64,000 nucleotides of DNA from an uncultured delta proteobacterium. GTDB lineage: Bacteria > Desulfobacterota > Desulfobacteria > Desulfobacterales > JAHEIW01. The notes below the pieces were generated by a model. It worked only from the letters and a program-made list of their open reading frames with translations. It made no database searches and was not told where the DNA came from. The translations under genes were made by a program, and so were the position numbers. Positions 17,558 through 37,409 of this stretch are shown here, piece after piece. The first letter of the stretch is position 1. Every line of letters begins with the position of its first letter. The stretch spans positions 224,001 to 288,000 of the forward strand of contig CAVPNL010000001.1 in assembly GCA_963706575.1 (NCBI GenBank). The letters are read 5' to 3'.

Positions 17558-17646
17558 TGTTTCGGCAAATAGGTTAGCGCCTGTGCACAGGAAAAAATGA
17601 CTGGAATAAAATATACCTTACAACCTCTACAGCACCGGGGGTGGAA

Positions 17647-19317: not shown

Positions 19318-19836
19318 GTGACAGATAGGAAAAAACACGAAAGAGAGACGATTCGTCTCACCATAAATGATGTGGTTCAGGAATTTGAAATTGGTGACCA
19401 CGCTTATCAAGTGACACCCTACGAGACGCTGGCACAGACGCTCAGAGAGACGCTGGGTCTGAAGGGGACCAAAACAGGATGCAATCAAGGCGCATGCGGC
19501 TCGTGCACGGTTTTAATGGAGGGAATTCCTGTTTTGTCATGTATGCTGCTGACCATCGAATGCGACGGGAAACAGATCACCACCATCGAAGGTCTTCAAG
19601 ATCAAACAACGGGTAAATTGGATGAGATTCAACAGGCCTTCATCGATCACACCGCCTTTCAATGCGGGTTTTGCACCCCCGGTCTTATTATGGCATCAAA
19701 GGCGTTGCTGAGCAAAAATCCGTCTGCGACCGAAGCAGAGATCAAACAGGCCCTCTCCGGTCACTATTGCCGGTGTATCAGTCACTACCATGTTGTCGAG
19801 GCCCTCATAACGGTTAGCGGGAAAAGCAGAAAATGA
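19318..19836 (+). CDS. Xanthine-dehydrogenase-family 2x[2Fe-2S] subunit
   Basis: GCNQGACGSCTVL..SC, QCGFCTPG, CRC. Confidence 0.95.
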   Translation: MTDRKKHERETIRLTINDVVQEFEIGDHAYQVTPYETLAQTLRETLGLKGTKTGCNQGACGSCTVLMEGIPVLSCMLLTIECDGKQITTIEGLQDQTTGKLDEIQQAFIDHTAFQCGFCTPGLIMASKALLSKNPSATEAEIKQALSGHYCRCISHYHVVEALITVSGKSRK

Positions 19837-22106
19837 CATTCCAAAAAGAATACAGGTATATCGGCAAGGCCATGCCCCGCAAAGACGCTGTCGGAATCGT
19901 TACCGGGAAAGCGCAGTACATTGATGATGTGGAACTCCCCAGAATGCTCCATGGAAAGGTGCTGAGGAGCCCATACCCGCATGCGCTGATCAAAAATATC
20001 GACACCACCGACGCTGAAAAATCGCGCGGCGTAAAGGCCGTTTTGACGTATAAAAATGTGCCTCGCTGGATGACCGGAACACCGCGACATGTCCGGGTCC
20101 TGGATGAAAAGGTGCGCTATGTGGGGGATGCGGTGGCGCTGGTTGCGGCGGAGACCGAAGCCATGGCCCGGGATGCTTTGGCGCTCATAGAAGTGAGCTA
20201 CGAGCAGCTGCCTGCCGTATATGACGTTGAGGACGCCTTAAAACCGGATGCGCCCCAGTTATATGATGATTTTCCGGGCAACCTTCTTCCGCTGGATGTC
20301 CCTGTCTTCGGGCCCAAAACCCTGTCGGCAATAGAACTTGGAGATATTGAGAAAGGCTTTGCGGATTCCGATTTTATTAGTGAGGGGACTTTTTCCTATG
20401 AAAATATCCCCAATCCGCTCCCGATTGAATCACCCGGTGTGATTGCCGAATGGAGCGAACCCAATCATCTGACGGTCTGGTCCGCTACCCAGTGCGCATA
20501 CTGGCACCGTCATATGATGATGCCCAGGATGGGGTTCCCTGATATCAGGACCATCGGCACCCACTGCGGCGGCAGTTTTGGATCCAAAAATTACTCCGCC
20601 CAGCCGATGCTGTATGCAGCGGCCTTAGCCCGGGCCGCCGGCAGACCGGTAAAAGTATGCTTCAGCAAGGAAGAGCATTTCGGCGCGTTCGTTTTGCGGC
20701 TGGGCTCAAGATTTCGGGGCAAGGTGGGCCTAAAAAAAGACGGCAGCGTGAAAGCCGTCTCCGGCGAATGGCTGGTGGACACGGGCGCATTTTCAGACCA
20801 GGCCCAGGCCCAGGTTGCCGTCGGATTGGGTGAGGCCCAGCTGATGCTGCGGTGTTCCAACTGGGATCTGAAGACGAAGCTGGTTTGCACCAATAGATGT
20901 GCTTCGGGAATGGTCAGAGGGTTTGGTGGACAGGAGCTGCAGAGCGCGCTGCTTCCCGTTTTTGAGGACGCCATGGCCCAGGGGGACATCGATCCGGTCG
21001 AATTTTTCAAAAAGAACTTTGTCAAGCCCGGTGAGGGATATTACTGGCGCGACGGAAATTGGTGGGTTTCAAAGGGCAAAGATTATTCGGCGGCCATAGA
21101 GAGCGGGGCGCGAGCGTTTGGCTGGGCGGAGAAGTGGAAAGGCTGGCTCAAACCCTCGGCTGTCAACAACAGCAAACGGATTGGTGTGGGCGTGAGTGTG
21201 CATGGTAACGCCGATGTGGGCGAAAGTGTTTCTGAAGCTTACGTGCGGTTGAATCCAGACTCCACCGTTACCATACACGCCTGCGTTGCCGAGTCAGGGA
21301 TGGGGCAAAGAAGCAGTCTCTGCAAAATGGTAGCCGAAACGCTAAAGCTTCCCCTTGAACGGGTGAATATGACGCCCCCCGACAGCCTGATCAACCCCTT
21401 TGATTTTGGGCTGGTGGGTTCACGGGGGACCTATGCGCTGGGATCAGCGGTTATTTCAGCCGCCGAAGACGCCAAAGAAAAGCTTTTTAAAATGGCAGAG
21501 GACAAGCTGGAAGCAGCGCCGAGTGATCTGGATAGCAAAGATGGAATGGTTTTTGTCAAAGGAAGCCCGGATAAAGGGATACCCTGGAGAAAGGCTATCG
21601 GGATAATGCAAACCTGCACCGGATTCGGACGCTTCCAGCCCGACTACTGCATGCCAAACTTTCTGGCACTGTTTGCAGAAGTAGAAGTGGATACGGAAAC
21701 AGGGAAATTGGATTTGCTGAGAGTGGTTACCGCAACGGATGTCGGCCAGATCATTGATCCGCCATCCCTTGAGGGCCAGATGCATGGGGCTCTTGGTGCT
21801 GCCGGGATCGACACCGCCATTTTCGAAGAATCGCTCATAGATAAAAACAGCGGACATATGCTGAACCTGAATATGATGGATTATAAATGGCGTTCTTTTC
21901 TTGAACTGCCCCGATTTGAAAACAAGATCTTAGAGACCTCCATCCAGACGCATCGGTACAAGGCAATCGGTGTCGGAGAGATTTCCACTTCGCCCGGGCC
22001 GGGCGCGGTGTTAATGGCAGCTTCCAATGCCATGGGTAAAAGATTAACAGGGTATCCGCTGACACCTGATAAAATCCTCAAGGCTCTGGGAAAAATCAAT
22101 CCCTGA
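19833..22106 (+). CDS. Xanthine-dehydrogenase-family molybdopterin-binding subunit
   Basis: LRSPYPHA, VRYVGD, WSATQ, GGSFGSK, VRGFG, GMGQ, EVEVDTETG, GVGE. Confidence 0.95.
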   Translation: MTFQKEYRYIGKAMPRKDAVGIVTGKAQYIDDVELPRMLHGKVLRSPYPHALIKNIDTTDAEKSRGVKAVLTYKNVPRWMTGTPRHVRVLDEKVRYVGDAVALVAAETEAMARDALALIEVSYEQLPAVYDVEDALKPDAPQLYDDFPGNLLPLDVPVFGPKTLSAIELGDIEKGFADSDFISEGTFSYENIPNPLPIESPGVIAEWSEPNHLTVWSATQCAYWHRHMMMPRMGFPDIRTIGTHCGGSFGSKNYSAQPMLYAAALARAAGRPVKVCFSKEEHFGAFVLRLGSRFRGKVGLKKDGSVKAVSGEWLVDTGAFSDQAQAQVAVGLGEAQLMLRCSNWDLKTKLVCTNRCASGMVRGFGGQELQSALLPVFEDAMAQGDIDPVEFFKKNFVKPGEGYYWRDGNWWVSKGKDYSAAIESGARAFGWAEKWKGWLKPSAVNNSKRIGVGVSVHGNADVGESVSEAYVRLNPDSTVTIHACVAESGMGQRSSLCKMVAETLKLPLERVNMTPPDSLINPFDFGLVGSRGTYALGSAVISAAEDAKEKLFKMAEDKLEAAPSDLDSKDGMVFVKGSPDKGIPWRKAIGIMQTCTGFGRFQPDYCMPNFLALFAEVEVDTETGKLDLLRVVTATDVGQIIDPPSLEGQMHGALGAAGIDTAIFEESLIDKNSGHMLNLNMMDYKWRSFLELPRFENKILETSIQTHRYKAIGVGEISTSPGPGAVLMAASNAMGKRLTGYPLTPDKILKALGKINP

Positions 22107-22141
22107 CTTGTGCAAGATGCAAGTAGATAGGAGATAGTAAA

Positions 22142-23140
22142 GTGAAGGCATTCAAGCACTTTAATGCCACCTCGGTCGATGACGCCATTTCGCTGATGCG
22201 CTCATCTAAAGGCAATACCAACCTGATTGCCGGTGGCACAGATTTGTTGGGCGTACTCAAAGATGAAATCCTGCCGGACTATCCTGAAGCCCTTATCAAC
22301 ATCAAAACCATTCCCGGGTTGGATGATGTTAAGCAAAACAAGAAAGGGCTGAAAATAGGCGCCCTGACCAAATTGGCCGATATAATTGCACATCCGTTGG
22401 TTAGAAAGAACTACCCCATTTTGTCCAAAGCAGCAGAAGCCGTGGCCACACCTGAAATTCGCAACATGGCCACCCTGGGGGGCAACCTGTGCCAGGGCAC
22501 GAGGTGCTGGTATTATCGATACCCGCATCACATGGGCGGGAGAATCATTTGCTATCGCAAAGAAAAAGCGCCCTGTCAGGCTGTCAAAGGCGATAACCGT
22601 TATCATGCCATTATGGGTGCAAAGGTGTGTTTCGCCGTTTGTCCCTCAGACACCGCCATAGCGCTCACGGCCCTGGGAGCCAAACTCGAAATCAAAGGTC
22701 CCCAAAAGGCTCGAAAAGTATCCGTCGATGAATTTTTCACCATACGCGGCAATATCCTCGAACCCGATGAGCTCTTAACGCAGATTGAGATACCCAGGCC
22801 TGCACCGGAGGCACGACAGGAATTTATCAAATATACATTAAGAAAGCCCGTTGATTTTGCCGTTGCCAGTGTCGCCGCGGTCGTTAAGATGCAGGATGGA
22901 ATTTGCCAAGATGCGCGCATCGTACTCGGAGCCGTCGCTCCGACACCGGTTAGGGCCGTTGATTCAGAAAAACTCCTGAAAGGCAAGGTTGCCAGTGAAA
23001 AGGGGATTGCCGAGGCCGCCGAGGCAGCGGTTAAGGATGCGAAGCCGATGCGGATGAATGCGTATAAGGTGGAAATAACCAAGACATTGGTAAAAAGAGC
23101 TATTTCGCAGTGCGTCAGCGTAAAAGTGGATCTCCGCTAA
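22142..23140 (+). CDS. Xanthine-dehydrogenase-family FAD subunit with [4Fe-4S] insert (PaoB/YagS-like)
   Basis: IAGGTDLL, IRNMATLGGNLCQGTRCWYYR..C..C..C, LGAVAPTP, NAYKV. Confidence 0.95.
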   Translation: MKAFKHFNATSVDDAISLMRSSKGNTNLIAGGTDLLGVLKDEILPDYPEALINIKTIPGLDDVKQNKKGLKIGALTKLADIIAHPLVRKNYPILSKAAEAVATPEIRNMATLGGNLCQGTRCWYYRYPHHMGGRIICYRKEKAPCQAVKGDNRYHAIMGAKVCFAVCPSDTAIALTALGAKLEIKGPQKARKVSVDEFFTIRGNILEPDELLTQIEIPRPAPEARQEFIKYTLRKPVDFAVASVAAVVKMQDGICQDARIVLGAVAPTPVRAVDSEKLLKGKVASEKGIAEAAEAAVKDAKPMRMNAYKVEITKTLVKRAISQCVSVKVDLR

Positions 23141-23163: not shown

Positions 23164-23354
23164 GTTTCAAGGTTCATAGGTTCATAGGTTCCGGGTTCAG
23201 GGGTTCAAGGGTTCTCGTTTCAGAGGTCAGAAGTCAGAATACAGAAAACAGAAAGCGGGGGTTTATTTCATGTCATAGTCGCTGGTCTCTATCGTCTGTC
23301 GCCTGACCTCTGATATTTGCCTTCTGTCATCTGGCCTCTGTCATCTGACCTCTG
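23164..23354. repeat. Composite short-period repeats between convergent genes
   Basis: About 6 GGTTCANN octamers; CAGANNN heptamers at 23221-23253 with complementary units at 23288-23354, running into the MFS 3' end. Confidence 0.75.
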
Positions 23355-24637
23355 TATTTTCGGGGAGCGGCAAACCAGCAAAAAAGGCAAGAAAGTAAAG
23401 AGGTGACAATTACAAGGATAAAAGCCAATTGATAGCTCTGGGTTTTATCAAATATAAATCCCGCGATCCAGGCACCAAAAGCACCGGCGATTCCGATGCC
23501 GGCTTCCAAAAATCCAAAGATCAGGCCAAATATTCTTCCTTTAAATAAATCCGCAGCTATAGCCATAAACATCGGGGCAGTGACACCCCAGCCCATTCCG
23601 AAAAAGATAGCATAACTGTAGATAAGGATTCTCGACCCCATTATTTCGAATAAAAGCAGAGAACCTGCTCCCAGGCAGGCGCAGATAATTCCCAATGTAT
23701 ACGTTAATTCGCGACTGATATGGTCGGAGAGCCAGCCCCAGAAAATTCTAAAAATGGATGAAAGAATCCCAACGAGCGCAAAGATAAAGGCCGCTGTCAT
23801 TTTAGTGACTCCCTGATCGACAAGAAATCCTACGTTGTGGACAAGGATGATAAAAAATCCGATGAATCCTAAGAATGGAAAAATGATCAACGCCCAAAAC
23901 CGCATGGTATTCATGGCTGTTCTGAGGGTCCAGTCACTACTTTTATGAGCTGATGATTTTTTATGGGGATGAGGATTCTTATGTATTTCCCCTGGATTCC
24001 TTCCGTCAGGATGTTGCCCCAATTCTTCAGGCTTATGTCGCAAGAAGATTGCGTTGGCCGGAACTAAAAAGACAAGAACCAGACCGCCGGTGATCGCAAA
24101 AGTTAAGCGCCAACCCCACCAATTAATAAATTGCTGGGACATTGGAACCAGCAAAAAGGTGCCAAGGCCCATGCCCGACACTGCAATCCCGCTTGCCAAG
24201 CCGCGCTTCTTTTCAAACCAGTGGGCTAAAATAGCGGAGTAGCTGACAATGCCGATGCAGGTGATGCCGGCTCCCATGACCACGCCGTAAAGGAGGTAAA
24301 ATTGAGTGAGGGTTTCGATATAGCTACAGACAATCAATCCGAATGCCAGAACCAGAATTCCCGGAACGATGACGCGGCGGGGGCCAAAGCGGTCAATTAA
24401 ACCGCCCACCAGAGGTGCCATTAGCGTATAAATGATAAGGGCTACAGATTGAACGCCGGCGGAATCTGAGCGATTCCATGGGAATTCTTCCAGCAAGGTG
24501 ACATAAAAAACTGAAAAACTTGACCGTATGCCAAACCAGAAGGTCATCGAGATCAGCGCCACTGCAACGATAACCCAGCCGTAGTAGAAGTCCGAGGAAC
24601 AAACACTTCTTCGGGGACTCGCTGAATTGTTCAGCAT
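23327..24637 (-). CDS. MFS transporter, OFA/MCT-like
   Basis: YYGWVIV, GGLIDRFGPR, HWFEKKRGLASG, WGWLSD, GFIFDKTQSY; about 12 hydrophobic segments. Confidence 0.95.
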   Translation of the reverse strand: MLNNSASPRRSVCSSDFYYGWVIVAVALISMTFWFGIRSSFSVFYVTLLEEFPWNRSDSAGVQSVALIIYTLMAPLVGGLIDRFGPRRVIVPGILVLAFGLIVCSYIETLTQFYLLYGVVMGAGITCIGIVSYSAILAHWFEKKRGLASGIAVSGMGLGTFLLVPMSQQFINWWGWRLTFAITGGLVLVFLVPANAIFLRHKPEELGQHPDGRNPGEIHKNPHPHKKSSAHKSSDWTLRTAMNTMRFWALIIFPFLGFIGFFIILVHNVGFLVDQGVTKMTAAFIFALVGILSSIFRIFWGWLSDHISRELTYTLGIICACLGAGSLLLFEIMGSRILIYSYAIFFGMGWGVTAPMFMAIAADLFKGRIFGLIFGFLEAGIGIAGAFGAWIAGFIFDKTQSYQLAFILVIVTSLLSCLFCWFAAPRKYRGQMTEAR

Positions 24638-25158
24638 TTAACAGTTTTCCACTGGTTACTTTCGTCAATTAGGCGGCACTCATCAGTCCAGTCACATACA
24701 TTACCGATTTTTTCGGGACTTTCAAAAATGGCGCATTTGAGCAGGCACTCGGATTTTTTGTCATCCACTTCAATGGCGGCTACATAGGTTGTTTCGAAAT
24801 TTAGCTTCTCTATGATTTGATCCAGGATCATGTTGATGATCGGGCAATTGTAAATTTTGATGCCTCGTTTTCTCAGCGCTAACTCTTTTGGAATATGGAT
24901 GCAACTGTCAACTTTGGCGTAAAGCAAAATATCCTGTCCGCCAATGGAATAGGATATATCTTTGGCCAGGCCGGCGGTGATGATTTCCCGAATGCAGTTC
25001 TCAATAATCTCGGCGGGGGTTGTGCCCTGAATATCTCTTGATTGGATAAAATCGACACCGATAAATTCCGTCTTCCAGCAGGCGCAGTCCGACAGCTCGT
25101 GGTAAAAAAGCTCCTCCAGTCTGGCCATCATATCATTGAAGTATTCGGTTCTGTCCAT
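24631..25158 (-). CDS. Hypothetical Cys-rich protein
   Basis: 175 aa, abuts the nitroreductase stop and overlaps the MFS start; contains CIH, NCPI and EC motifs. Confidence 0.75.
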   Translation of the reverse strand: MDRTEYFNDMMARLEELFYHELSDCACWKTEFIGVDFIQSRDIQGTTPAEIIENCIREIITAGLAKDISYSIGGQDILLYAKVDSCIHIPKELALRKRGIKIYNCPIINMILDQIIEKLNFETTYVAAIEVDDKKSECLLKCAIFESPEKIGNVCDWTDECRLIDESNQWKTVKC

Positions 25159-25821
25159 CTAAGGTCTCTCCTTATTGCCAAATTTTTCCCAGTAAACCAG
25201 ATCTTCCAATGGCAGCTTGGGCCTGGGATGTTTGCGTTCTTCGGCCGGAAAACCGACGGCGACATAGCAAATGACTTTGTACTCGTTCATACCCGTCGGA
25301 ATGCCCAGGATTTCTTTGAATTTAATGGCGTCGCGGGAAGTTGCCACCGGCCCGTGCACCCAGCAAGCGCCTAAGCCCAGAGAATGGGCTTCCAGAAGTA
25401 TGTTTTCGGTGGCGGCAGACAAATCATATGGGACATCCACGGACCCGATCTGCAAGTCACCGATAACGGCGATGACCACCGGTGCGTGTTTGGCAAACTC
25501 GGAGACTTCCCCGGAGTACATGAACTCCAGGACCCTGGCGCGTTTAGCGGGGTCCTGAATTTTCTCAAACCGCTTCTGCATTTCACCCATGCAGTACCAG
25601 GCTGTCATACGGGAGCCGCTACCGATCTTGGCCAGATCTCCGATCTTATTTTTTGTCTCCTGATCCCTGATGACAATAAATCGCCAGGGCTGATAGTTTT
25701 CGCCGGTGGGTGCCCACCTCGCCGCCTCAAGTATTTTATCGATCATCTCATCGGGTACCGGATCGGGCTCGTATCGGCGGATGCTTTTTCTGCTGATTAA
25801 GACGTCTAAGATGTCTTGCAT
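25159..25821 (-). CDS. Nitroreductase-family flavoprotein
   Basis: RKSIRRY, ILEAARWAPTGENYQPWRFIV, ENILLEAHSLGLGACW. Confidence 0.95.
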   Translation of the reverse strand: MQDILDVLISRKSIRRYEPDPVPDEMIDKILEAARWAPTGENYQPWRFIVIRDQETKNKIGDLAKIGSGSRMTAWYCMGEMQKRFEKIQDPAKRARVLEFMYSGEVSEFAKHAPVVIAVIGDLQIGSVDVPYDLSAATENILLEAHSLGLGACWVHGPVATSRDAIKFKEILGIPTGMNEYKVICYVAVGFPAEERKHPRPKLPLEDLVYWEKFGNKERP

Positions 25822-25959: not shown

Positions 25960-26889
25960 TTAAAGCTTTAGCAATTTGCGTGCGGCTTCCCCCAAAATTA
26001 AATTGATCTCCCGGTCGCTGAATTCCAAATCCGTTTCGCGTTTCTTGAATGCCTGGACCCATTCTTTCAGAGGGCACATCAGATTGGGATAGGGAGCATC
26101 AGTAGCAAACAGGATTTTTTCGGGGCCGGCAATGTCAATGATATCCCGCAGCCATTGATAAAAGCGCTTTTTCGGCAGTTTTTTATAGGGTTTCTGCCAT
26201 AGTGACAGATCAACATAGACATTTTTAAGCCATGCTGCTGCCTGGATGGCTTCCTGCCACCAGCCCACATCGCCACAGTGGGCAAAAATAAAATCGACTT
26301 CCGGATAGCGGGCGGCAGCCGATGCAAAATAAACCGGACGTGAATTCTCCCAACGCAGGGCAACCGAAGGGGCCCCGCCGGTGTGCACCATTACCGGAAT
26401 ATTCCATTCGGCTGCTTTCTCATAGATCCAATAGCAGGCTGGATCATCCGCCATATAGCCAACGCCGGCATGGAGTTTGAAACCTTTCATGCCCCATTCA
26501 TGATACGCCTGCTCACAATGTTGCACAGCTCCCTTGCGTCGCGGATCAATAGCCATAAAAGGGATTAAGCGGTCTTTATGCCGCTTGGCGGCATCCGCAT
26601 AGAGCTTGTTCTGATCAAATATATGGATGGGAGGCTCGCCGAAAAGGAGTCCGTAATCCACACCGAAGATAATTGTTTTATCCACACCGGCGGCGTCCAT
26701 TTCCTCGATAATGTTGTCGGCCTGCGGATCTATGAGAGGTCTGACGACGTCTTGGGTAAAATCGCGATCGCTGATTTCAACATTGTGGGTTTTACGGTAC
26801 ATCATTGCGAAACTTTTCTGGGCCCCTCGAATGTAATCGCCCTGAACCGTCCCGGCGGCTACTAGATGTCGGTGTACATCGATAATCAT
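25960..26889 (-). CDS. Amidohydrolase_2-family metallo-hydrolase/decarboxylase
   Basis: IIDVHRH, GFKLH, PVMVHTG, FAHCG, NVYVDLS, ILFATDAP. Confidence 0.9.
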   Translation of the reverse strand: MIIDVHRHLVAAGTVQGDYIRGAQKSFAMMYRKTHNVEISDRDFTQDVVRPLIDPQADNIIEEMDAAGVDKTIIFGVDYGLLFGEPPIHIFDQNKLYADAAKRHKDRLIPFMAIDPRRKGAVQHCEQAYHEWGMKGFKLHAGVGYMADDPACYWIYEKAAEWNIPVMVHTGGAPSVALRWENSRPVYFASAAARYPEVDFIFAHCGDVGWWQEAIQAAAWLKNVYVDLSLWQKPYKKLPKKRFYQWLRDIIDIAGPEKILFATDAPYPNLMCPLKEWVQAFKKRETDLEFSDREINLILGEAARKLLKL

Positions 26890-27038: not shown

Positions 27039-27437
27039 TCAGGTATTCAATTTTTCCTTGATGTAGGTCGCAATTTCGGCCGGCGGGGTTCCCGGTAAAA
27101 ACACTTCCTGCACGCCCATTTTTTTAAGCTGCGGGATTTGATGTTTTAATATAATGCCACCGGCAATTACCATTATGTTTTCCAAACCCTTTTCGCTGAG
27201 TGTCTGCAGAACCTTTGGAACCAGAACCATGTGGTCACCGGCCAGAAAACTCAGTCCCACAACATCAACGTCTTCCTGCACCGCGGCCGTGGCAATGTGT
27301 TCAGCAGTTTGACGAAGACCGGTGTAAACGACCTCCATACCGGCATCCATCAAGGACCGCGCTACAATTTTAGCCCCGCGATCATGGCCGTCAAGACCGA
27401 TCTTGGCTATCAAGACTCTTATTTTGGAGTTTTCCAT
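27039..27437 (-). CDS. B12-binding small subunit of a split acyl-CoA mutase
   Basis: KIGLDGHDRGAK (DxHxxG), MEVVYTGLRQT, DVVGLS, GGII, FLPGT; AGGAGA RBS. Confidence 0.95.
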   Translation of the reverse strand: MENSKIRVLIAKIGLDGHDRGAKIVARSLMDAGMEVVYTGLRQTAEHIATAAVQEDVDVVGLSFLAGDHMVLVPKVLQTLSEKGLENIMVIAGGIILKHQIPQLKKMGVQEVFLPGTPPAEIATYIKEKLNT

Positions 27438-27536
27438 ATTCTTCTCCTGATGGATGATACCTTTTCGATAAAAACTATTGTTTTGAAGCATGCTTGATAG
27501 ATGGTTTTTCCCATTACGCCACCTTTTCAAGCGCCA

Positions 27537-29207
27537 TCATATGTATGTCGATGCCTGAAATTCACCCCATTTTTCGCGCATGACGCTGCAGATCTCACCG
27601 ATGGTGGCATAGCTTTTAACGGCTTCGATGATATGGGGCATGAGGTTTTCGTTTTTATCAATGGCCAGTGCAAGGCCGGTCAGTTGTTTTTGCACATCGT
27701 CGGCATTTCTGCCGGCTCTAATCGCGGCGACCTTTTGCTTCTGGCTGCCTTCAACACGATCATCAAGTTCGAAAATTTCCTGACCTTCCAAATCGTTTTC
27801 AGATGGCATACCATATTTGTTCAATCCGACGATGACACGCTCGCTGCTATCTACACGTTTTTGAAATTGTACACTTGATTCCTGAATTTCTTTAAAAACA
27901 TATCCATTTTCAATGGCTCCGAGCATGCCGCCCATGGCATCGATTTTTTCCAAGTATGCTGCTGCCTGCTGTTCGATTTCATTGGTGAGGGATTCTACAA
28001 AATAGGAACCGGCCAGCGGGTCGATGGTGTTGCCGAGGCCGCATTCGTGCGCCAGGATCTGTTGGGTCCTGAGCGCAATCCGGGCGGAATCCTCGGAAGG
28101 AATTGCGTAACCCTCGTCCCAGCAGGCCGTATGAATGGCCTGATTGCCGCCCAAGATGCCCATTAAAGCATGCATTGCCACCCTGACAATATTGTTGATA
28201 GGCTGCTGCGGAACCAAGGTTGAGCCGCAGGATCCGGTGAAGATCCGGAACAGCTGACTTTTGGGATTTTCGGTCTGGAAGCGTTCGCGCATGATTTTTG
28301 CGTATAATCTGCGGGCGGCTCGATATTTGGCGATTTCCTCGAAAAAATCCATGTAGCATCCCAGGCTGTAGGACAAACGCGGCGCAAAATAATCCACCTC
28401 CAGACCCCGCTCCTGAGCCTTCTCAATATAGGTGATGGTGTCAGCCAACGTAAAGGCAAGTTCCTGGATGGCGTTGGCACCGGCTTCTCTGAAATGGTAG
28501 CCGGTTATGTTGAGTGTGTTCCATCTTGGAACGTGATGGGCGCAATGCTCCACGATGTCCAAAACCAGTTTGATGCTGGGCTCCGGGGGGAAGATATAAG
28601 TGCCCCGGGCGATGAACTCTTTCAAAATGTCGTTCTGGGTGGTGCCCATAAGTTTTTCGGGAGAAACGCCCTGCTTTTCACCCACGGCAATGTACATGGC
28701 CAGCAGAATCGTGGCCGGCGCATTGATGGTCATGGAGGTCGAGACCTTATCAAGGGGAATACCCTGAAAAATAATCTCCATGTCGGCTAAAGAATCCACG
28801 GCGACTCCCACGCGGCCGACAGACCCCTCTGATAGGGGATCATCCGAGTCGTAGCCTAATTGGGTCGGCAGATCGAAGGCGATGGACAAGCCTTTCATAC
28901 CTTGATCCAAAAGATAGCGGAAACGATGATTCGTGTCTTCAGCTTTACCGAAACCGGCATAATTGCGCATGGTCCAGAGGCGCCCGCGATACATGCTGGG
29001 ATAAACGCCGCGAGTGTAAGGGTACTGACCGGGATATCCCAGTGCCTCGTCGTAGTCCATGCCCTCCAGATCCTGCGGGGAGTACAACCGCTTAACCGCG
29101 ATACCGCTTTCGGTCGTGAATTCTTCCTGTCTTTCAGGAGATCGGTCCAACACTTTTTTAAGTGTTGTGTTTTCCCATTGTTCCAGACTTTCTGTATTTT
29201 GTTTCAT
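27537..29207 (-). CDS. Acyl-CoA mutase large subunit, methylmalonyl-CoA-mutase family with divergent pocket
   Basis: PGQYPYTRG, WTMRNYAGFG, GLSIAFDLPTQLGYDSD, STSMTINA, QNDILKEFIARGT, GYHFREAGA, DPLAGSYFVE. Confidence 0.95.
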   Translation of the reverse strand: MKQNTESLEQWENTTLKKVLDRSPERQEEFTTESGIAVKRLYSPQDLEGMDYDEALGYPGQYPYTRGVYPSMYRGRLWTMRNYAGFGKAEDTNHRFRYLLDQGMKGLSIAFDLPTQLGYDSDDPLSEGSVGRVGVAVDSLADMEIIFQGIPLDKVSTSMTINAPATILLAMYIAVGEKQGVSPEKLMGTTQNDILKEFIARGTYIFPPEPSIKLVLDIVEHCAHHVPRWNTLNITGYHFREAGANAIQELAFTLADTITYIEKAQERGLEVDYFAPRLSYSLGCYMDFFEEIAKYRAARRLYAKIMRERFQTENPKSQLFRIFTGSCGSTLVPQQPINNIVRVAMHALMGILGGNQAIHTACWDEGYAIPSEDSARIALRTQQILAHECGLGNTIDPLAGSYFVESLTNEIEQQAAAYLEKIDAMGGMLGAIENGYVFKEIQESSVQFQKRVDSSERVIVGLNKYGMPSENDLEGQEIFELDDRVEGSQKQKVAAIRAGRNADDVQKQLTGLALAIDKNENLMPHIIEAVKSYATIGEICSVMREKWGEFQASTYI

Positions 29208-29251: not shown

Positions 29252-29962
29252 CTAAACTCGTGCGGACCCGGTGCTGTCATATTCTTCATCTGTCAATGCT
29301 CGAATGACAAGGTCTCTGGCCTTTTGTATATGGCTTCGCATTAATTCGCTGCTGCCGATGATATCTTTGTTTTTCATCTTACTGACAAGACGATTGTGTT
29401 CATCAACTGCAACGGCCATTCGTTGGATATCGTAATTCTCCAACCGGGCTCGCAGGTAAATGTGCTCAAAATTCCTTTTCAGCAGCCATTTGAGGACGTT
29501 GTTCTTCGTCATGGCTGCGATTTGAAGATGAAACGCAGAATCCAGTAAAAATTTTTTGCGGGTGTAGTAATGGGGTTGATAAGCAGCATGTTCGCGGAGC
29601 TTATTCTCCAGTTCTTGGATATCACCATTATCGGAAAGTTTGATTGCCTGTTCAACGGTGTAAACTTCCAATGCTTCTCTAACCCCGAATGCATCCCAAA
29701 CTTCCTGCAGGTCAATGGGTCGTACGTAAAATCCGCGGAAGCTCTCAAATGCGACAAATCCTTCTTGAACCAGACGATTCAGAGCATTGGTAATCGGAGT
29801 ACGTGACATGTTGAATTTATCGACGAGGTCCTGATTGACGAGTCGTTGACCGGGGATAAGCTTTTGATCAAAAATCATCTGCTTTATCAGGCGGTAGGCT
29901 TCCTCAATCCTTGTGATCGAATTGTTGGGGTGATCTGCTTTTTGAATCATTTTGATTGACAT
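29252..29962 (-). CDS. GntR/FCD-family transcriptional regulator
   Basis: AYRLIKQMI..LIPGQRL..MSRTPITNALNRLVQEG; FCD motifs VREALE, D.AFH, EH. Confidence 0.95.
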   Translation of the reverse strand: MSIKMIQKADHPNNSITRIEEAYRLIKQMIFDQKLIPGQRLVNQDLVDKFNMSRTPITNALNRLVQEGFVAFESFRGFYVRPIDLQEVWDAFGVREALEVYTVEQAIKLSDNGDIQELENKLREHAAYQPHYYTRKKFLLDSAFHLQIAAMTKNNVLKWLLKRNFEHIYLRARLENYDIQRMAVAVDEHNRLVSKMKNKDIIGSSELMRSHIQKARDLVIRALTDEEYDSTGSARV

Positions 29963-30172: not shown

Positions 30173-30290
30173 TCAAAATTGAATTCAATTTTATGGCATA
30201 ACCGACCGGATCTTGAACAACTCACTTGGGTGATGGTTTTGCGGTTACGCAACTGACAATGGGAAAGTGCCTCACACAGGAGAATACGCT

Positions 30291-30686
30291 ATGATTAAGA
30301 AAATCAAGCATATTGGGGTTGCCGTCGATGACTTGCAAACAGCCAGAGATTTTTTCCAGGAAACGTTTGACCTATCCACTTCAGATCAGGAAAATTTCGG
30401 TGAACTTCTATTTTCTTTTATCCCCATGGAAGGAACGAATCTGGAACTTCTTCAATCCACTCAAACCGATGGTCAGATTGCAAAATTTATTCAAAAAAGA
30501 GGGCAGGGGATTCACCACATTGCCCTGGAGGTGGATGACGTCCAGGTTGAGTTGGACCGCCTTAAGGCCAAAGGGCTGAAGCTTATTAACGAGAAACCGT
30601 ATCGCAATGCCCATCAGGATCTGGTCGCATTTATACATCCCAAAAGCACATTCGGGGTCTTGATAGAATTAATTCAGACGGACTAA
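30291..30686 (+). CDS. Methylmalonyl-CoA epimerase family protein (VOC)
   Basis: KHIGVAV, LELLQ, KFIQKRGQGIHHIALEVDD, AFIHPKSTFGVLIEL. Confidence 0.9.
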   Translation: MIKKIKHIGVAVDDLQTARDFFQETFDLSTSDQENFGELLFSFIPMEGTNLELLQSTQTDGQIAKFIQKRGQGIHHIALEVDDVQVELDRLKAKGLKLINEKPYRNAHQDLVAFIHPKSTFGVLIELIQTD

Positions 30687-30725: not shown

Positions 30726-32291
30726 ATGGCACAGAAAAAGACCTGGGAAAAAGAGCTTAAAAAGTTTCATGCCAGAGAGAAGGAAGCCCAACTGGGCGGC
30801 GGGGAAGCACGTTTGCAAAAGCTCAGGGAAAAGGGCATTTTGACCGCCCGCGAACGCATCGACTATATTCTGGATGCGGGTAGCTTTGTAGAGCTCAATA
30901 TGATGGCCGAACACCAGTGCCGCGATTTCGGAATGGACAAGAAAAAATTTGCAGGCGACGGTGTTGTCACCGGCTATGGGACAATCGCCGGCCGCAAACT
31001 CTTCATTTATTCAGAAGACGCTACTGTTTTAGGAGGATCGACCGGAAAGACCCATGGTGCCAAAATTCATTACATTCTCAAGCTGGCCCGGGAGAATATG
31101 GTGCCGGTCATTTGTCTGAACGCATCGGCCGGAGCCCGTATCCAGGAAGGCATGGACAATGTCTATGGAATTACAGGAATGTTTTACCAGAATTCACTCA
31201 ACTCCGGTGTCGTTCCCCAAATTGCTGCAATTATGGGCGCCTGCACCGGCGGTGCGGCCTATTCGGCGGCGTTGTGTGACTTCATCGTCCAGGTGGAAAA
31301 AACAGCGCATGTCTTTATTACCGGACCGGCGGTTATTAAAGAAGTTACCGGAGAGGAAGTTTCGTTTGAAGAATTGGGAGGCGCCAAGGTTCACAGCACC
31401 AAGTCCGGTGTCGTTCATCTGGCAGCCAAAGATGACAGGCACTGCCTGGACCTGATCAAAGGCCTACTGGATTATCTTCCTCAAAATAACCGGGAAAAAC
31501 CGGCCCCTAAATCCTGCACGGATCCTGTTGCTAGGGAAGTGCCGGAACTCATCGACATGGTTCCCATCCAAATGTCCAAGACGTATGATATGAAGCAGGT
31601 TATTCGTGCGATTGTGGATGAAGGTGATTTTTTTGAAATCCATGCCGTCTTCGCCATGAATATGGTGGTCGGATTTGCGCGCATGGGAGGACGCGTGGTC
31701 GGCTTGGTCGCCAACAATCCTCGTTTTATGGGCGGCTGCCTGGATATCAATTCTTCCGACAAAGCCGCCCGTTTCATTCGAACCTGCGATGCGTTTAATA
31801 TCCCGATCATCTCTCTTGTTGACGTGCCCGGATTCCTGCCGGGACTCGATCAGGAACACAACGGCATCATTCGCCACGGGGCGAAAATGCTCTATGCCTG
31901 GACCGAGGCAACGGTGCCAAAGATTTCGTGTATACTCAGAAAAATGTATGGCGGGGCGATTCCCGCCATGGGGGTTCACCAGATCGGCTTTGACCAGGTC
32001 TTTGCCTGGCCTTCGGCGGAAATGCAAATGGTGGGTGCCGAGCCGTCAGTGAAAATTCTCTATCGCCGGGAACTTGAACAGGCTGAGGAGCCGGCTGCCT
32101 ATCTGGAGCAAAAAATTAAGGAGTATCAAGAACTTTACCTGACCCCTTATCACTCGGCTTCGCGTTCCGTCATCGACGCCGTTATTCATCCCAGGGACAC
32201 CCGCAAAAAAATAATTTCAGCACTGAGTATTTTAGAAGACAAAGCTGAAACACCGAGACAATTTCGCAAACATGGAAATATACCTTTATAA
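30726..32291 (+). CDS. Acyl-CoA carboxyltransferase (PccB/MmdA/12S-like)
   Basis: LTARERID, GDGVVTGYG, GARIQEG, GGAAYS, LGGA.VH, DVPGFLPG.DQE..GIIRHGAK, RKHGNIPL. Confidence 0.95.
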   Translation: MAQKKTWEKELKKFHAREKEAQLGGGEARLQKLREKGILTARERIDYILDAGSFVELNMMAEHQCRDFGMDKKKFAGDGVVTGYGTIAGRKLFIYSEDATVLGGSTGKTHGAKIHYILKLARENMVPVICLNASAGARIQEGMDNVYGITGMFYQNSLNSGVVPQIAAIMGACTGGAAYSAALCDFIVQVEKTAHVFITGPAVIKEVTGEEVSFEELGGAKVHSTKSGVVHLAAKDDRHCLDLIKGLLDYLPQNNREKPAPKSCTDPVAREVPELIDMVPIQMSKTYDMKQVIRAIVDEGDFFEIHAVFAMNMVVGFARMGGRVVGLVANNPRFMGGCLDINSSDKAARFIRTCDAFNIPIISLVDVPGFLPGLDQEHNGIIRHGAKMLYAWTEATVPKISCILRKMYGGAIPAMGVHQIGFDQVFAWPSAEMQMVGAEPSVKILYRRELEQAEEPAAYLEQKIKEYQELYLTPYHSASRSVIDAVIHPRDTRKKIISALSILEDKAETPRQFRKHGNIPL

Positions 32292-32314: not shown

Positions 32315-33166
32315 ATGAAATTAAATACGATTGGTGTTATCGGGGCAGGGATTATGGGCAGTGGTGTCGCCCAGGTCAGCGCTGCTGCCGGTTATTTCGC
32401 AGTGGTTCAGGATACAGATGATTCTGCTCTTGAATGGTCGAAATCCGGGATAGAAAACAGTCTGAAAAAACTGGCCGAAAAAGGCAAGATTTCCGAGAAG
32501 GACCTTCAAGTGACAATGGGGCGTATTCAATATACGACCGAACTGAAAAAAGCCTGTGAGGATGCCGACCTTGTCGTAGAAGCTGTGTTCGAAAACCTTG
32601 CGGTAAAGCATGAACTTTTTGAAAAGATGGAGAACATCGCCAAACCGGATGCAATTTTAGCGTCGAATACGTCTGCTATACCCATTACGGAAATAGCATC
32701 GCTTTGCAGCAGGGGGGATAAAATAATCGGAATCCATTTCATGAATCCGGTGCCCTTGATGAAAGGTGTTGAAATTATCCGGGCGCAGCTGACATCGGAT
32801 GAAACATTTGAGACGGCACTGAATTACATCCGCAGTTTGGGAAAAGAGCCCATACCGGCGGTTGATTATGCGGGATTCATTGTCAGCAGACTCGTGGATG
32901 TTTTGATGAATGAGGCCGTCAAGATGGTTCAGGAAGGCAATCGACCGCAAGACATCGACAAAGCCATGGAATTGTGTGCCGGTCATCCCATGGGCCCCTG
33001 CAAACTGCTGGATCTGGTCGGGGCCGAAATTGCCATGCACGGCATGGAGACCATGGCGCGGGATTTCGGAGATGGCTACAAGCCCCACCCTTTGTTGAAA
33101 AAGAGGGTGCTCGCGGGCTTGCTCGGCAAAAAATCAGGCAGGGGATTCTATGATTATAAGCATTGA
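32315..33166 (+). CDS. 3-hydroxyacyl-CoA dehydrogenase, Hbd-like
   Basis: GAGIMGSG, VEAVFE, ASNTS, GIHFMNPVPLM, HPMGP, LGKKSGRGFY. Confidence 0.95.
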   Translation: MKLNTIGVIGAGIMGSGVAQVSAAAGYFAVVQDTDDSALEWSKSGIENSLKKLAEKGKISEKDLQVTMGRIQYTTELKKACEDADLVVEAVFENLAVKHELFEKMENIAKPDAILASNTSAIPITEIASLCSRGDKIIGIHFMNPVPLMKGVEIIRAQLTSDETFETALNYIRSLGKEPIPAVDYAGFIVSRLVDVLMNEAVKMVQEGNRPQDIDKAMELCAGHPMGPCKLLDLVGAEIAMHGMETMARDFGDGYKPHPLLKKRVLAGLLGKKSGRGFYDYKH

Positions 33167-33217
33167 AGCTGCTTTTCATGAACAGGCGATTTTCTAGTGT
33201 GGAAAGGGCAACAAATA

Positions 33218-33991
33218 ATGGGTAAACTTAAACTTTTTGATTTAAGCGGTAAAGCAGCTATCGTCACCGGCGGTGGGAGAGGACTGGGATTTGCCCTGGC
33301 TGAAGCTCTGGCGGAAGCCGGCTGTGATCTCATGCTTTGTTCCAGAAAAGCAGTCAATTGTGAAGCAGCCGCCCGCAAACTGGAGCAACTGGGCGTTACT
33401 GCTGTCGGCAAAAAGTGTGATGTTACAGATTCTTCCGATGTAGCTGAGCTACGGGACGCGTCTTTGAAGGTGTTCGGCAAGATTGATATCCTCATCAACA
33501 ACTCCGGAGCTGCCTGGGGCGCAGCGACGGAAGACTATCCCCTTGAAGGCTGGCAAAAGATTATCAATGTCAATGTTACCGGGACGTTTTTGTGCTCCCA
33601 AATCATCGGTAAATCCATGATCAGTAAAGGCAAAGGGAAAATCATAAACTTGAGCTCTGTATTCGGCACCGTCGGCGCGCCATCCAATGTTATGGATGCC
33701 ATCGCCTATAATACGAGCAAGGGGGCTGTGGAAGCCTTTACCAAAGATCTGGCCGTCAAATGGGCAAAACATCAAATTTGCGTCAATACAATCGCACCGT
33801 CGTTTATCGAGACCGACCTGACGCGTGAGACCATGCAAAAGGGCGGCAAGCACATCCTCGATCTAGTGCCCATGGGACGATTTGGCGTACTCGAAGATCT
33901 TAAGGGTGCCGCCATTTTTTTGAGTTCCGCCGCCTCTGATTATATCACCGGAACGACGATTTATGTTGATGGCGGTTACAGGGCGATGTAG
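33218..33991 (+). CDS. SDR oxidoreductase, gluconate-5-dehydrogenase-like
   Basis: TGGGRGLG, NNSG, YNTSK, YITG..YVDGG. Confidence 0.9.
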   Translation: MGKLKLFDLSGKAAIVTGGGRGLGFALAEALAEAGCDLMLCSRKAVNCEAAARKLEQLGVTAVGKKCDVTDSSDVAELRDASLKVFGKIDILINNSGAAWGAATEDYPLEGWQKIINVNVTGTFLCSQIIGKSMISKGKGKIINLSSVFGTVGAPSNVMDAIAYNTSKGAVEAFTKDLAVKWAKHQICVNTIAPSFIETDLTRETMQKGGKHILDLVPMGRFGVLEDLKGAAIFLSSAASDYITGTTIYVDGGYRAM

Positions 33992-34021
33992 GCCTGCAAG
34001 TTGGAAGGCGGGGTCCTAAAC

Positions 34022-34167
34022 TAGAACCTATCTCAAAAATGTCTTTTGGCCCAATATCTTTGTAGGAGCCTCGTTTAAAATCCTCGACATACAACAGTAT
34101 GCCTCCGGTTTTAAACTCGACTCCGCCGCGATCTTGAACCAAAATCCTATTTTTGAGATAGGTTCTA
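34022..34167. mobile_element. MITE-like element, family B, copy 2
   Basis: Perfect 19-bp terminal inverted repeat TAGAACCTATCTCAAAAAT; body colinear with 15142-15288. Confidence 0.85.
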
Positions 34168-34194
34168 TTGAATGCATGTATTTGGAGAAATTGA

Positions 34195-35982
34195 ATGACT
34201 GAAAATATGAGCGGCGGCCATTTCCTTATTCAATCGACCTCGCAGACAGCGATCTTCACCCCGGAAGATTTTACCAAAGAGCATAAAGCGATTGCCAAAT
34301 CAGTGAAAGAGTTTGTAGCCGGGGAAATTCAAAGTCGAGGGGATGAGATTGAGCATGTTAACAATGAACTCAGCCGTGAGTTAATGAGAATCGCCGGGGA
34401 AATTGGACTTCTGGCGGCGGATGTCCCTGAAGAGTACGACGGCATGGCTTTGGATAAAATCAGTTCCCTGATAATATCGGATTTTCTGGGAGAAGGCGCC
34501 GGTTCATTTACGATCACCGAACTCAATCATACCGGTATCGGCACACTGCCCGTGGCTTTTTTCGGCACCGAAGATCAAAAAAAGAGATATCTTCCGGGGC
34601 TTTCATCCGGAGAATTGATCGGAGCCTTCGGTCTGACGGAACCGGATGCGGGATCGGATGCCTTGAACGCTAACACTACAGCTGAATTGAGTGAGGACGG
34701 AAAATACTACATCCTCAACGGCACCAAGGCGTTTATTACCAATGCGGGGTTTGCCGATCTCATATTTGCCTTCGCAAAAGTGGACGGCAAAGCGTTTACC
34801 GCTTTTATTGTCGAATTTGACTCCGACGGGCTTTCAGTCGACGCCGAAGAAGTCAAGATGGGTATGAAGGGGACATCCACCCGTTCCGTTATATTCAAGA
34901 ACGTAAAGGTGCCGGCGGATAATGTGTTGGGAGAAGTGGGCCGGGGACATGTGGTGGCTTTGAATGCGCTGAATATGGGCCGATTCAAAGTCGGAGCGGT
35001 GTGCATCGGAAATGCACGCAACACATTCAACGAAGCCGTCGCCTACGCGCGGCAGAGAGTCCAGTTCGGTTCGCCGATTTGTGAATTTGGCCTGATAAAA
35101 GAAAAGGTCGGGCAAATGGCGGCGAGCGTGTTTGCCGGTGAAAGTATGATGTATCGCACCGCCCATTTGATTGACCGGTTGATCAAAAGCGGCAGTCAAA
35201 CGGATAGTAATATCGGCCAATTAACTGCCGCTGCTTTGGAAGAATATTTGATTGAATGTTCAATCATGAAAATATACGGTTCCGAAACCCAGGGATTTGT
35301 TGCCGATGAGTCTGTTCAGATTTTCGGGGGCTATGGCTACATTTATGAAAATCCGGCTGAACTGGCTTTTCGCAATGCCCGCATTAACAGGATCTGGGAG
35401 GGAACCAACGAGATCAATCGTATTACCGTTACCAATACCCTGCTCAAACGGAGCGCTAAGGGCCGGCTCGACTTGGACATCGACATGCCTGCGTTATCCC
35501 GTGAAATCATGGGATTCCAGCCTGTCACCTCCGACAATCCCGAAACCCTTGAAACCCAGGAGCAAATGTTGGGTGTTGCCAAATATATCACACGGTGGTT
35601 GATCGGGATGACGTTCGAACGATTTGAGAAGGGCCTAAGAAACCAACAGGAACTGGCCGGCATAATCTGTGACATGCTGATTGAAATCTATGCCTTCGAG
35701 AGTGCCTACTTACGGGCTCGGCAAATGAATGTGAAACAAAAGGGGCGCGGGAGGGCGACGGCGTTGAAGATTACCAAAGTTCTGTCAGCCCGATTTTACG
35801 ACAAGCTTGGCTCTCTCACCTGCCGCGCTCTACCGGCACTAGCGGATGATAAATCGTTGCCGGAAAAATTGGCTCTGGCGGGAACCCTGCTTTGCCCACC
35901 GCCGATCGATACGATAATCCTGAATCGACAAATTGCCGAAAAGTGCGTTCAAAAGAAAGGCTATCCCTTTAAAGTGGCTTGA
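34195..35982 (+). CDS. Acyl-CoA dehydrogenase, long form with C-terminal extension
   Basis: FTPEDFT, HTGIGTLP, GLTEPDAGSDA, LNGTKAFITN, KMGMKGTST, QIFGGYGY, RINRIWEGTNEINR. Confidence 0.95.
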   Translation: MTENMSGGHFLIQSTSQTAIFTPEDFTKEHKAIAKSVKEFVAGEIQSRGDEIEHVNNELSRELMRIAGEIGLLAADVPEEYDGMALDKISSLIISDFLGEGAGSFTITELNHTGIGTLPVAFFGTEDQKKRYLPGLSSGELIGAFGLTEPDAGSDALNANTTAELSEDGKYYILNGTKAFITNAGFADLIFAFAKVDGKAFTAFIVEFDSDGLSVDAEEVKMGMKGTSTRSVIFKNVKVPADNVLGEVGRGHVVALNALNMGRFKVGAVCIGNARNTFNEAVAYARQRVQFGSPICEFGLIKEKVGQMAASVFAGESMMYRTAHLIDRLIKSGSQTDSNIGQLTAAALEEYLIECSIMKIYGSETQGFVADESVQIFGGYGYIYENPAELAFRNARINRIWEGTNEINRITVTNTLLKRSAKGRLDLDIDMPALSREIMGFQPVTSDNPETLETQEQMLGVAKYITRWLIGMTFERFEKGLRNQQELAGIICDMLIEIYAFESAYLRARQMNVKQKGRGRATALKITKVLSARFYDKLGSLTCRALPALADDKSLPEKLALAGTLLCPPPIDTIILNRQIAEKCVQKKGYPFKVA

Positions 35983-37317: not shown

Positions 37318-37409
37318 GGAAATTAAGCCGCATAAAATTATCACCGCAGAGGCGAAAACTATAATCGAGACGAATAGAAAAATAGAAATAAGCTCTCAGG
37401 AGATTAGGG

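Follow-up and report, generated by a model that had tools for sequence, protein, structure and literature searches.

Results

The mutase genes and the surrounding cluster

We have found that a 64,000-nucleotide stretch of DNA from an uncultured delta proteobacterium (contig CAVPNL010000001.1; the whole stretch is referred to here as the window) carries two neighbouring genes that are predicted to encode a split adenosylcobalamin-dependent acyl-CoA mutase belonging to a distinct clade, with an active site unlike that of methylmalonyl-CoA mutase (MCM). The large subunit, a substrate-binding TIM barrel of 556 amino acids (27537..29207, reverse strand), was recognized from its open reading frame, from alignment with the MCM of P. 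shermanii (PDB 1REQ; E 1e-129) and from the family model TIGR00641 (726 bits, cut-off 304). The cobalamin-binding small subunit of 132 amino acids (27039..27437, reverse strand) contains the DxHxxG motif and passes TIGR00640 (164 bits, cut-off 57). Against the MCM equivalog model NF006944, which was built on the fused 721-residue form, the mutase scores 609, the cut-off being 876.

The mutase transcription unit is headed by a GntR regulator (29252..29962, reverse strand). On the same strand are an Amidohydro_2 metallo-enzyme (25960..26889; PF04909), predicted to be a ring-opening hydrolase but possibly a decarboxylase or hydratase; a nitroreductase-family flavoprotein (25159..25821; PF00881), conserved at 77-91% across loci and a predicted ring (ene) reductase; and a 175-residue protein (24631..25158) with a V4R/H-NOX/TRAPP-like fold, no Pfam match and five cysteines that are invariant in an alignment of 22 sequences. 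On the forward strand lie a methylmalonyl-CoA epimerase family protein (30267..30686; TIGR03081, 126 against a cut-off of 115) and a stand-alone carboxyltransferase (30726..32291; TIGR01117, 696 bits, below the cut-off of 999) that is predicted to act as a malonyl-CoA-type decarboxylase. No MeaB gene was found in the window mutase cluster, and no gene for a biotin carrier, biotin carboxylase, lactamase or CoA-transferase was recognized there. Behind the carboxyltransferase, its operon contains genes for an acyl-CoA dehydrogenase, a hydroxyacyl-CoA dehydrogenase and a thiolase. A 3-hydroxyacyl-CoA dehydrogenase, an SDR protein and a 595-residue acyl-CoA dehydrogenase, which vary between loci and have a predicted role in beta-oxidation, are encoded at 32315..35982 (forward strand). 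An aryl-acid adenylating enzyme resembling salicylate- and dihydroxybenzoate-AMP ligases, with Asp at the Asn235 position, is encoded at 17641..19296 (forward strand).

A carboxylate clamp is kept and the pocket is altered

Residues are numbered throughout as in P. shermanii MCM and were read off the 1REQ alignment; the titles of PDB entries describing a Y89F substrate complex and an H244A mutant are consistent with this numbering. The alignment bears out what had been noticed from the sequence alone, namely that the Tyr, Arg, Tyr-His and Glu residues are kept: Y83, Q191, R201, Y237, H238, E241 and E365 of the window enzyme correspond to Tyr89, Gln197, Arg207, Tyr243, His244, Glu247 and Glu370, and Ser285 and Arg326 are likewise retained. 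The window mutase thus has the Tyr89/Arg207 carboxylate clamp of MCM. It lacks the Phe287/His328/Gln330/Asn366 set, residues which we take to form the lining of the acyl and adenosyl site, and has Ser, Phe, Gly and Ala in their place (S281, F323, G325 and A361 in its own numbering; codons at 28365-28367, 28239-28241, 28233-28235 and 28125-28127, respectively). These four replacements, also noted previously, are confirmed and prove to be fixed in the clade except at position 328, which is Phe, Tyr or Cys; to them we add a fifth pocket change, Ser362Ala. Over the pocket positions the net change is approximately -173 cubic angstroms, a figure that comes from residue volumes and not from a structure. 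The IcmF protein encoded in the same window serves as an internal control, as had been proposed: it retains SFFF, YHCQTSG and HTNAFDE, with Phe and Gln at positions 89 and 207.

The altered pocket defines a clade

Every one of the 120 best homologues (78-94% identical) has both RLSYSLGC and HTACWDE. When metagenome contigs were scanned for the motif, 108 matches emerged, 80 of them with flanking sequence; the 28 short ones were excluded from the neighbour counts given below. Ser287, Gly330, Ala362 and Ala366 are invariant in all 61 scorable clade loci, all of which also retain the clamp and the radical and cofactor residues Gln197, Tyr243, His244, Glu247 and Glu370, and position 328 is Phe in 47, Tyr in 13 and Cys in one. 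For comparison we used 71 neighbouring split mutases with Tyr89 and Arg207, which are the named-genome rows of a generic-pattern contig scan (one clade member occurred among the 80 matches listed); among the matches listed, Phe287 occurs in 69, His328 in 71, Gln330 in 71 and Asn366 in 69 of them. Since the pocket state is fixed across homologues and clade loci and absent from these neighbours, it is neither chance nor sequencing error. At positions conserved in the 71 split MCM-type mutases, again among the matches listed, the clade has lost 14 of 22 in strands 6-8 and their loops and 20 of 191 elsewhere, a contrast whose significance is overstated because the strand 6-8 segments were delimited after the list of lost positions had been seen.

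The sequence-only reading had suggested placing the enzyme in a phylogeny of known mutases, and this was accomplished in part. A midpoint-rooted FastTree phylogeny of residues 56-470, which took in 210 of 261 eligible sequences after two thirds of the canonical rows had been thinned and contained no ethylmalonyl-CoA mutase (Ecm), authentic IaaH or alkane-degrader mutase, recovers one clade of 60 sequences with support 1.0. The clade sits inside the split enzymes of the MCM and isobutyryl-CoA mutase (ICM) type (support 0.99), its exact sister being weakly supported (0.35, 0.17), and within it the Tyr328 form is a single subclade (support 0.97).

The rarity that the sequence-only reading had implied for such a pocket was overrated. 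Among 127 scorable family representatives there are 92 distinct six-residue signatures, none of which is that of the window enzyme, and 38 of the 66 representatives that keep Tyr89 and Arg207 depart from MCM in at least two of the positions 287, 328, 330 and 366. Rebuilt pockets are therefore common across the acyl-CoA mutase family. The window mutase is nonetheless a real, conserved and uncharacterized variant of a known enzyme class.

We found the motif in one of 301 genomes of an order sample (the source genome itself) and in 5 of 25 genomes of the family. Names attached to the mutase matches are those of Desulfobacteraceae, Desulfobacterales and Deltaproteobacteria bins, and the partner nitroreductase also occurs in Desulfatiglandales, Desulfomonile, Casimicrobiaceae, Gammaproteobacteria and Acidobacteriota bins. 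Estuaries and sediments are the origin of the metagenomic runs that contain at least 0.2 of the stretch. A search of plasmids returned no near relative of the mutase (best 56%), no match to the V4R-fold protein and, for the amidohydrolase, a best match of 33%. In open-access full-text literature we found nothing on the mutase clade or its pocket residues.

Other mutases in the source genome

The source genome (G000) encodes six mutase large subunits: the window enzyme, a 72% identical paralogue with Tyr328, a fused canonical MCM on contig C6, IcmF, a mutase with Leu89 on contig C9 and a further mutase on contig C1. The canonical MCM is accompanied by MeaB and by its own epimerase and carboxyltransferase, so housekeeping methylmalonyl-CoA turnover is already covered.

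The further C1 mutase (C1:491649-493283) keeps Tyr89 and Arg207 and has Asn287, Leu328, Gly330 and Cys366. It lies in a cluster (C1:489019-504357) with genes for a CoA-transferase, a GntR regulator, the split mutase, two lactamase/hydantoinase subunits, a PaaK-like ligase, a thiolase and a molybdoenzyme. We call this cluster iaa-like, by gene content only, since the gene set matches that of the iaa operon as it appears in excerpts of PMC8360864 and PMC5214803; no IaaF-like dehydrogenase gene was recognized inside it. The iaa-like mutase, for which the plasmid search gave no near relative either (best 46%), resembles the window mutase in having Tyr89/Arg207, Gly330 and smaller residues at 287 and 366, with a net pocket residue-volume change of -152 cubic angstroms. 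As the two are 42.5% identical and fall on different branches of the tree, a similar opening of the pocket seems to have arisen separately.

We note that the Tyr328 paralogue (C1:424860-426533) has frameshifts near both ends, which reflect either an assembly error or a decaying gene, and that its copy in another genome (G306) is intact. The split mutase on contig C9 (C9:128245-130499) has Leu89, Asp207, Asn in place of His244 and Asp366. Another genome with a Phe328 mutase, G302, which consists of a single contig, has eight mutase large-subunit matches.

Comparison with characterized mutases

MCM (1REQ/4REQ, human MMUT and the split archaeal and clostridial forms) shares with the window mutase its fold family, clamp and radical residues and cobalamin motif, at 44% identity to the MCM of the source genome and 50-64% to split forms. 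The window clade differs from MCM in its Ser287, Phe/Tyr328, Gly330, Ala362 and Ala366, in the lack of MeaB from the cluster and in an operon that includes amidohydrolase, reductase and aryl-acid ligase genes. The best PDB match of the window mutase is 2-hydroxyisobutyryl-CoA mutase (HCM; 4R3U, E 6e-159), with which it has the split architecture in common. HCM and IcmF, however, lack the Tyr89/Arg207 clamp (Ile and Gln in 4R3U, Phe and Gln in the window IcmF) and keep Phe287, His328, Gln330 and Asn366; the window mutase, with Tyr and Arg, is therefore not of the ICM, IcmF or HCM kind, in which position 89 is Phe or Ile and position 207 is Gln. Ecm of Rhodobacter sphaeroides presumably keeps the Tyr/Arg clamp and has positions 328 and 366 altered to fit the substituent; we take it to be a single chain with Gly328 and Pro366. 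The window enzyme is split and has Phe328, Gly330, Ser287 and Ala366, so that it does not match Ecm as so described.

Two further systems are instructive at the level of pathway. For IaaGH of Aromatoleum aromaticum, a phenylsuccinyl-/benzylmalonyl-CoA mutase, PMC8360864 describes the same proposed shift from a succinyl to a malonyl skeleton after ring opening. The window cluster lacks the hydantoinase-like lactamase and the CoA-transferase of the iaa route, and has an epimerase and a carboxyltransferase instead of the decarboxylating dehydrogenase IaaF; the combination of lactamase, PaaK-like ligase, CoA-transferase and IaaF that marks the IaaGH operon is thus absent from it. The (1-methylalkyl)succinyl-CoA mutases of anaerobic alkane degradation have mutase, epimerization and carboxyltransferase steps in common with the scheme proposed below, judging from an excerpt of PMC6776118. 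In contrast to those routes, the source genome (92% complete) yielded no glycyl radical enzyme of the fumarate-adding kind, and what accompanies the window mutase is a set of genes for an aryl-acid ligase, a reductase and an amidohydrolase.

Gene content differs between Phe328 and Tyr328 loci

We counted neighbouring genes with tblastn at 40% identity or more at 81 loci, 61 with Phe328, 14 with Tyr328 and six unclassified. At the 21 Phe328 loci with at least 3 kb of downstream sequence we found the amidohydrolase in 19, the nitroreductase in 16, the V4R-fold protein in 16 and an LLM reductase in three, and neither an M24 hydrolase nor an isochorismatase in any; at the 21 with at least 2.5 kb upstream, the carboxyltransferase occurs in 17, the epimerase in 14, a GntR regulator in 12 and a thiolase in 10. 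Eleven Tyr328 loci have at least 3 kb downstream, and there the counts are molybdoenzyme 11, isochorismatase eight, M24 seven, amidohydrolase none and nitroreductase none. Where the total flank is at least 8 kb, none of 16 Phe328 loci but 7 of 10 Tyr328 loci have a CoA-transferase, and aryl-acid-type ligases are present at 10 of the 16 long Phe328 loci (L104 has an eleventh ligase, which is of a different type). The identity of residue 328 and the gene neighbourhood vary together, and we regard the link as one evolutionary event, given that the Tyr328 enzymes form a single subclade and their loci are kin.

The Tyr328 clusters have features of the iaa-like cluster. One of their CoA-transferases shares 70% identity with its counterpart in the iaa-like cluster of the source genome, and their molybdoenzymes are 45-61% identical to the molybdoenzyme of that cluster. 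Where the iaa-like cluster has an ATP-dependent lactamase, they have an M24 hydrolase resembling ectoine hydrolase and an isochorismatase-type hydrolase resembling RutB, each scoring below cut-off. At three loci (L144:3556-4317, L151 and L157) a 250-residue, Cys-containing protein with no Pfam match follows the Tyr328 mutase, and at L151 and L157 it is paired with a 351-residue protein, without an NCBIfam match, that replaces the M24 hydrolase.

What the neighbouring proteins indicate

Ligases found within or next to other Phe328 clusters share 53-64% identity with the window ligase. The ligase of the deltaproteobacterial-type loci is closest to salicylate-AMP ligase (E 5e-102), and all eight of its copies carry Asp at the position of Asn235; that of the high-GC loci belongs to an unrelated, anthranilate-CoA-ligase-like subfamily (E 2e-75). 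That two unrelated ligase subfamilies fill one slot, both of them nearest to ligases of ortho-substituted benzoates, points to an aromatic acid as the compound activated. In both types, the positions that presumably restrict meta and para substituents in BadA and DhbE are occupied by small or polar residues.

The reductase slot is also exchangeable: the nitroreductase and V4R-fold pair is swapped for a Mer-like LLM oxidoreductase among mutases that are only a few percent apart. The model of the 175-residue V4R-fold protein, at a predicted local distance difference test score (pLDDT) of 78, matches TRAPP, DmpR and PoxR with Z of 7.5-8.1 and a root-mean-square deviation (rmsd) of about 4 angstroms, a middling likeness to V4R/H-NOX/TRAPP-like folds that implies no function. 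The amidohydrolase retains its metal ligands, and its PDB relatives (BB4693, LigW, LigJ, LigY and IDC) are all distant. Beside LLM-type clusters, and oriented divergently from them, we found BoxB genes with an unusual N-terminus (L143:4463-5884 and L119:1056-2480; 542 bits, cut-off 499), which hints at an aroyl-CoA product, perhaps a substituted benzoyl-CoA. A benzoyl-CoA ring hydrolase is present in five of five hosts; as carriers alone were compared, we do not use this as support.

Discussion

A proposed role in the breakdown of aromatic carboxylates

That the substrate is a substituted succinyl- or malonyl-CoA is supported by the conserved clamp, by the clade-wide change of the pocket, by the epimerase and carboxyltransferase genes linked to the mutase and by the fact that the genome has an ordinary MCM with MeaB besides. 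To this extent the earlier proposal of a mutase for a bulky substituted succinyl/malonyl-CoA stands; its terms bulky and enlarged express residue volumes only. The clamp also makes it likely that the substrate is a dicarboxylyl mono-CoA ester. Operon logic, which the sequence-only reading did not take up, is more informative here than the pocket residues. On balance we somewhat favour the view that the mutase converts a 2-substituted succinyl-CoA as the middle step in the breakdown of an aromatic or heteroaromatic carboxylate, after ring reduction and hydrolysis.

In this scheme the aryl-acid ligase would form the CoA ester; the nitroreductase and its V4R-fold partner, or the LLM reductase elsewhere, would reduce the ring double bond adjoining the thioester; and the amidohydrolase would cleave the ring hydrolytically at the carbonyl that lies meta to the thioester. 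Ligation at the ring carboxyl with a carbonyl two atoms away leaves the CoA on the substituted carbon, so that a CoA-transferase would be unnecessary. The mutase would then carry out a 1,2-shift, R-CH(COSCoA)-CH2-COO- to R-CH2-CH(COSCoA)-COO-, giving an (R-methyl)malonyl-CoA, on which the epimerase would act before the carboxyltransferase frees CO2 to yield R-CH2-CH2-COSCoA, and beta-oxidation of this decarboxylated product would follow. The Tyr328 paralogue might apply the logic of indoleacetate breakdown to a heteroaryl-acetate, with a molybdo-hydroxylase, amide hydrolases, a CoA shift and then the mutase. In the iaa pathway the ring-opened product has the CoA on the wrong carboxyl and IaaL transfers it intramolecularly, according to PMC8360864. 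The association of Phe328 with an aryl-acid ligase and no transferase, and of Tyr328 with an iaa-like transferase, matches this logic of CoA position.

If this scheme is correct, benzo-fused rings such as 2-quinolone-4- or coumarin-4-carboxylate, with R an ortho-substituted phenyl, are marginally the likelier entry compounds, and monocycles such as citrazinate/2-hydroxyisonicotinate or 3,5-dihydroxybenzoate, with R carboxymethyl, aminoethyl or acetonyl, are nearly as plausible. The data do not choose among these candidates; we lean towards a neutral or aryl R, which the acyl-CoA dehydrogenases of about 600 residues and BoxB favour. A route by citrazyl-CoA reduction reportedly operates in Mycobacterium INA1; our literature search did not find it. 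Glutaryl-CoA dehydrogenase was considered as a downstream enzyme and set aside, none of the five dehydrogenases tested reaching the NF045552 cut-off (three were partial).

Several observations weigh against the proposed role. His328Phe adds bulk and by itself brings no enlargement, and the AlphaFold model of the mutase, made from a 24-sequence alignment, has a mean pLDDT of only 50; Foldseek placed that model in the right family but with an rmsd of 22 angstroms, and we therefore made no use of it for pocket geometry. The amidohydrolase is about equidistant from decarboxylases, a hydratase and a C-C hydrolase, so that ring hydrolysis is an assumption. G302 has the Phe328 core, and queries with the window ligase and molybdoenzyme found no orthologue in this genome, which is 84% complete; more generally, the molybdoenzymes beside Phe328 clusters are mostly non-orthologous and vary between loci. 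Nor can the loci be counted as independent: six of those with Tyr328 form one sub-lineage and two pairs have identical mutases. Moreover, no cultured host appears among the names returned for the mutase and nitroreductase matches. As regards individual candidates, hydrolysis of an anilide lactam without ATP is unfavourable, which counts against the quinolone, and the shortfall in glutaryl-CoA dehydrogenase weakens citrazinate.

Alternative explanations

The strongest competitor, which we consider unlikely but worth serious attention, is that the enzyme is indeed a substituted succinyl/malonyl-CoA mutase whose substrate arises otherwise than by reduction and hydrolytic opening of a ring. In that case the amidohydrolase would act as a decarboxylase or hydratase and the nitroreductase on a substituted maleate, fumarate or itaconate with an open chain, or else another pathway would provide the dicarboxylate. 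The decarboxylase LigW and the hydratase LigJ are among the best characterized relatives of the amidohydrolase, and the G302 cluster, where no ligase or molybdoenzyme orthologue was found, would suit this explanation. It accounts poorly for the aryl-acid-type ligases of the long Phe328 loci and for the iaa-like ring-opening genes that accompany the Tyr328 sister form, and no fumarate-adding enzyme was found in the source genome that might supply such a substrate. An origin by fumarate addition is unsupported in this genome (92% complete): both of its PF02901 matches, at C3:435388-437331 and C15:69413-71353, are accounted for by HypD (over cut-off) and an unassigned CutC-related protein (733 against a cut-off of 1050). 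Three relatives have nine PF02901 matches, two of which were typed.

It is distinctly improbable, in our estimation, that the mutase runs in reverse or performs related radical chemistry, so that ring opening of a barbiturate- or oxindole-carboxylate-like compound would give a substituted malonyl-CoA from which the mutase makes a succinyl-type product, the carboxyltransferase then being a transcarboxylase or part of a side branch. The mutase reaction is reversible, as stated in an excerpt of PMC8360864, and the hydrolases of the Tyr328 clusters resemble, below cut-off, ectoine hydrolase and RutB, which are pyrimidine-type ring openers. Nevertheless, the window cluster has no recognizable biotin carrier or carboxylase gene, and the dehydrogenase and thiolase genes that follow the carboxyltransferase fit decarboxylation and then beta-oxidation.

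An ordinary or broad-specificity MCM isoenzyme serving propionyl-CoA in a catabolic cluster is very improbable: nesting among split MCM-type mutases at 50-64% identity would agree with it, and an epimerase and a carboxyltransferase accompany ordinary MCM too, yet five residues that are near-invariant in the 71 neighbours (among the matches listed) are all replaced at 61 of 61 clade loci, a canonical MCM is already present in the genome, and residue 328 co-varies with the gene module.

Significance

Few acyl-CoA mutase specificities have been characterized, and enzymes for bulky substituted succinyl-CoA compounds, in indoleacetate and alkane degradation, are known mostly from proposed pathways. 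The clade described here comes with a small, highly conserved and swappable gene set, and could lead to a new substrate and to a new pathway of ring breakdown in sediment bacteria that are abundant but uncultured; the mutase itself could serve for larger carbon skeletons. All genes of the clade are now annotated as methylmalonyl-CoA mutase, which likely misleads metabolic reconstructions. Altered-pocket mutases are numerous and the substrate candidates several, which tempers this significance. More broadly, and only tentatively, we propose that a meta-oxygenated (hetero)aromatic acid may be dismantled without benzoyl-CoA reductase in a route not described before, by CoA ligation, flavin-dependent ring reduction by the nitroreductase and V4R-fold protein, hydrolytic opening and a B12 mutase of a new class, in hosts that would be uncultured sediment Desulfobacterota and some Proteobacteria, with Phe or Tyr at position 328 marking an aryl-carboxylate or an aryl-acetate pathway.

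Other features of the window

Several genes near the cluster were rejected as core members because they are not conserved neighbours in other loci: the molybdoenzyme at 19833-22106, the 4-hydroxybenzoyl-CoA-reductase-like enzyme at 37937-40294, the PaaK-like ligase, the ABC binding protein, the riboflavin kinase, the HAD protein and the methyltransferase. The first of these belongs to a xanthine-dehydrogenase-family enzyme with FeS, Mo and FAD subunits (19318..23140, forward strand) that is loosely linked to the cluster, a 75% identical orthologue occurring in L095 only and none in G302. An MFS transporter (23327..24637, reverse strand) has a counterpart at one other locus only (L006, 69%). 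Upstream of the ligase (15334-17557, forward strand) are an S-adenosylmethionine-dependent methyltransferase, a 108-residue protein with no Pfam match, an archaeal-type CTP-dependent riboflavin kinase domain and a HAD phosphatase, none with a match in other loci, and at 36313-46629 (forward strand) are the 4-hydroxybenzoyl-CoA-reductase-like molybdoenzyme (651 bits, below cut-off), the PaaK-like ligase and a branched-chain ABC transporter, unconserved beside the mutase cluster.

Predicted promoters (18 versus 15.4 in shuffled sequences) and terminators (17 versus 12.7) are near shuffle levels. Contigs from three RNA libraries span parts of the cluster, mostly at less than 95% identity, and may reflect DNA carry-over. 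MttB-like methyltransferases are encoded in the window (49945-51528, reverse strand) and, with a corrinoid protein, at L006:16168-19284; the two copies are just 24% identical and their proximity to the mutase genes is therefore probably coincidental. Three xanthine-dehydrogenase-family molybdoenzymes lie within 40 kb of one another (19318-22106, 36313-40294 and 54196-58019), and the source genome as a whole encodes at least eight large subunits of this family.

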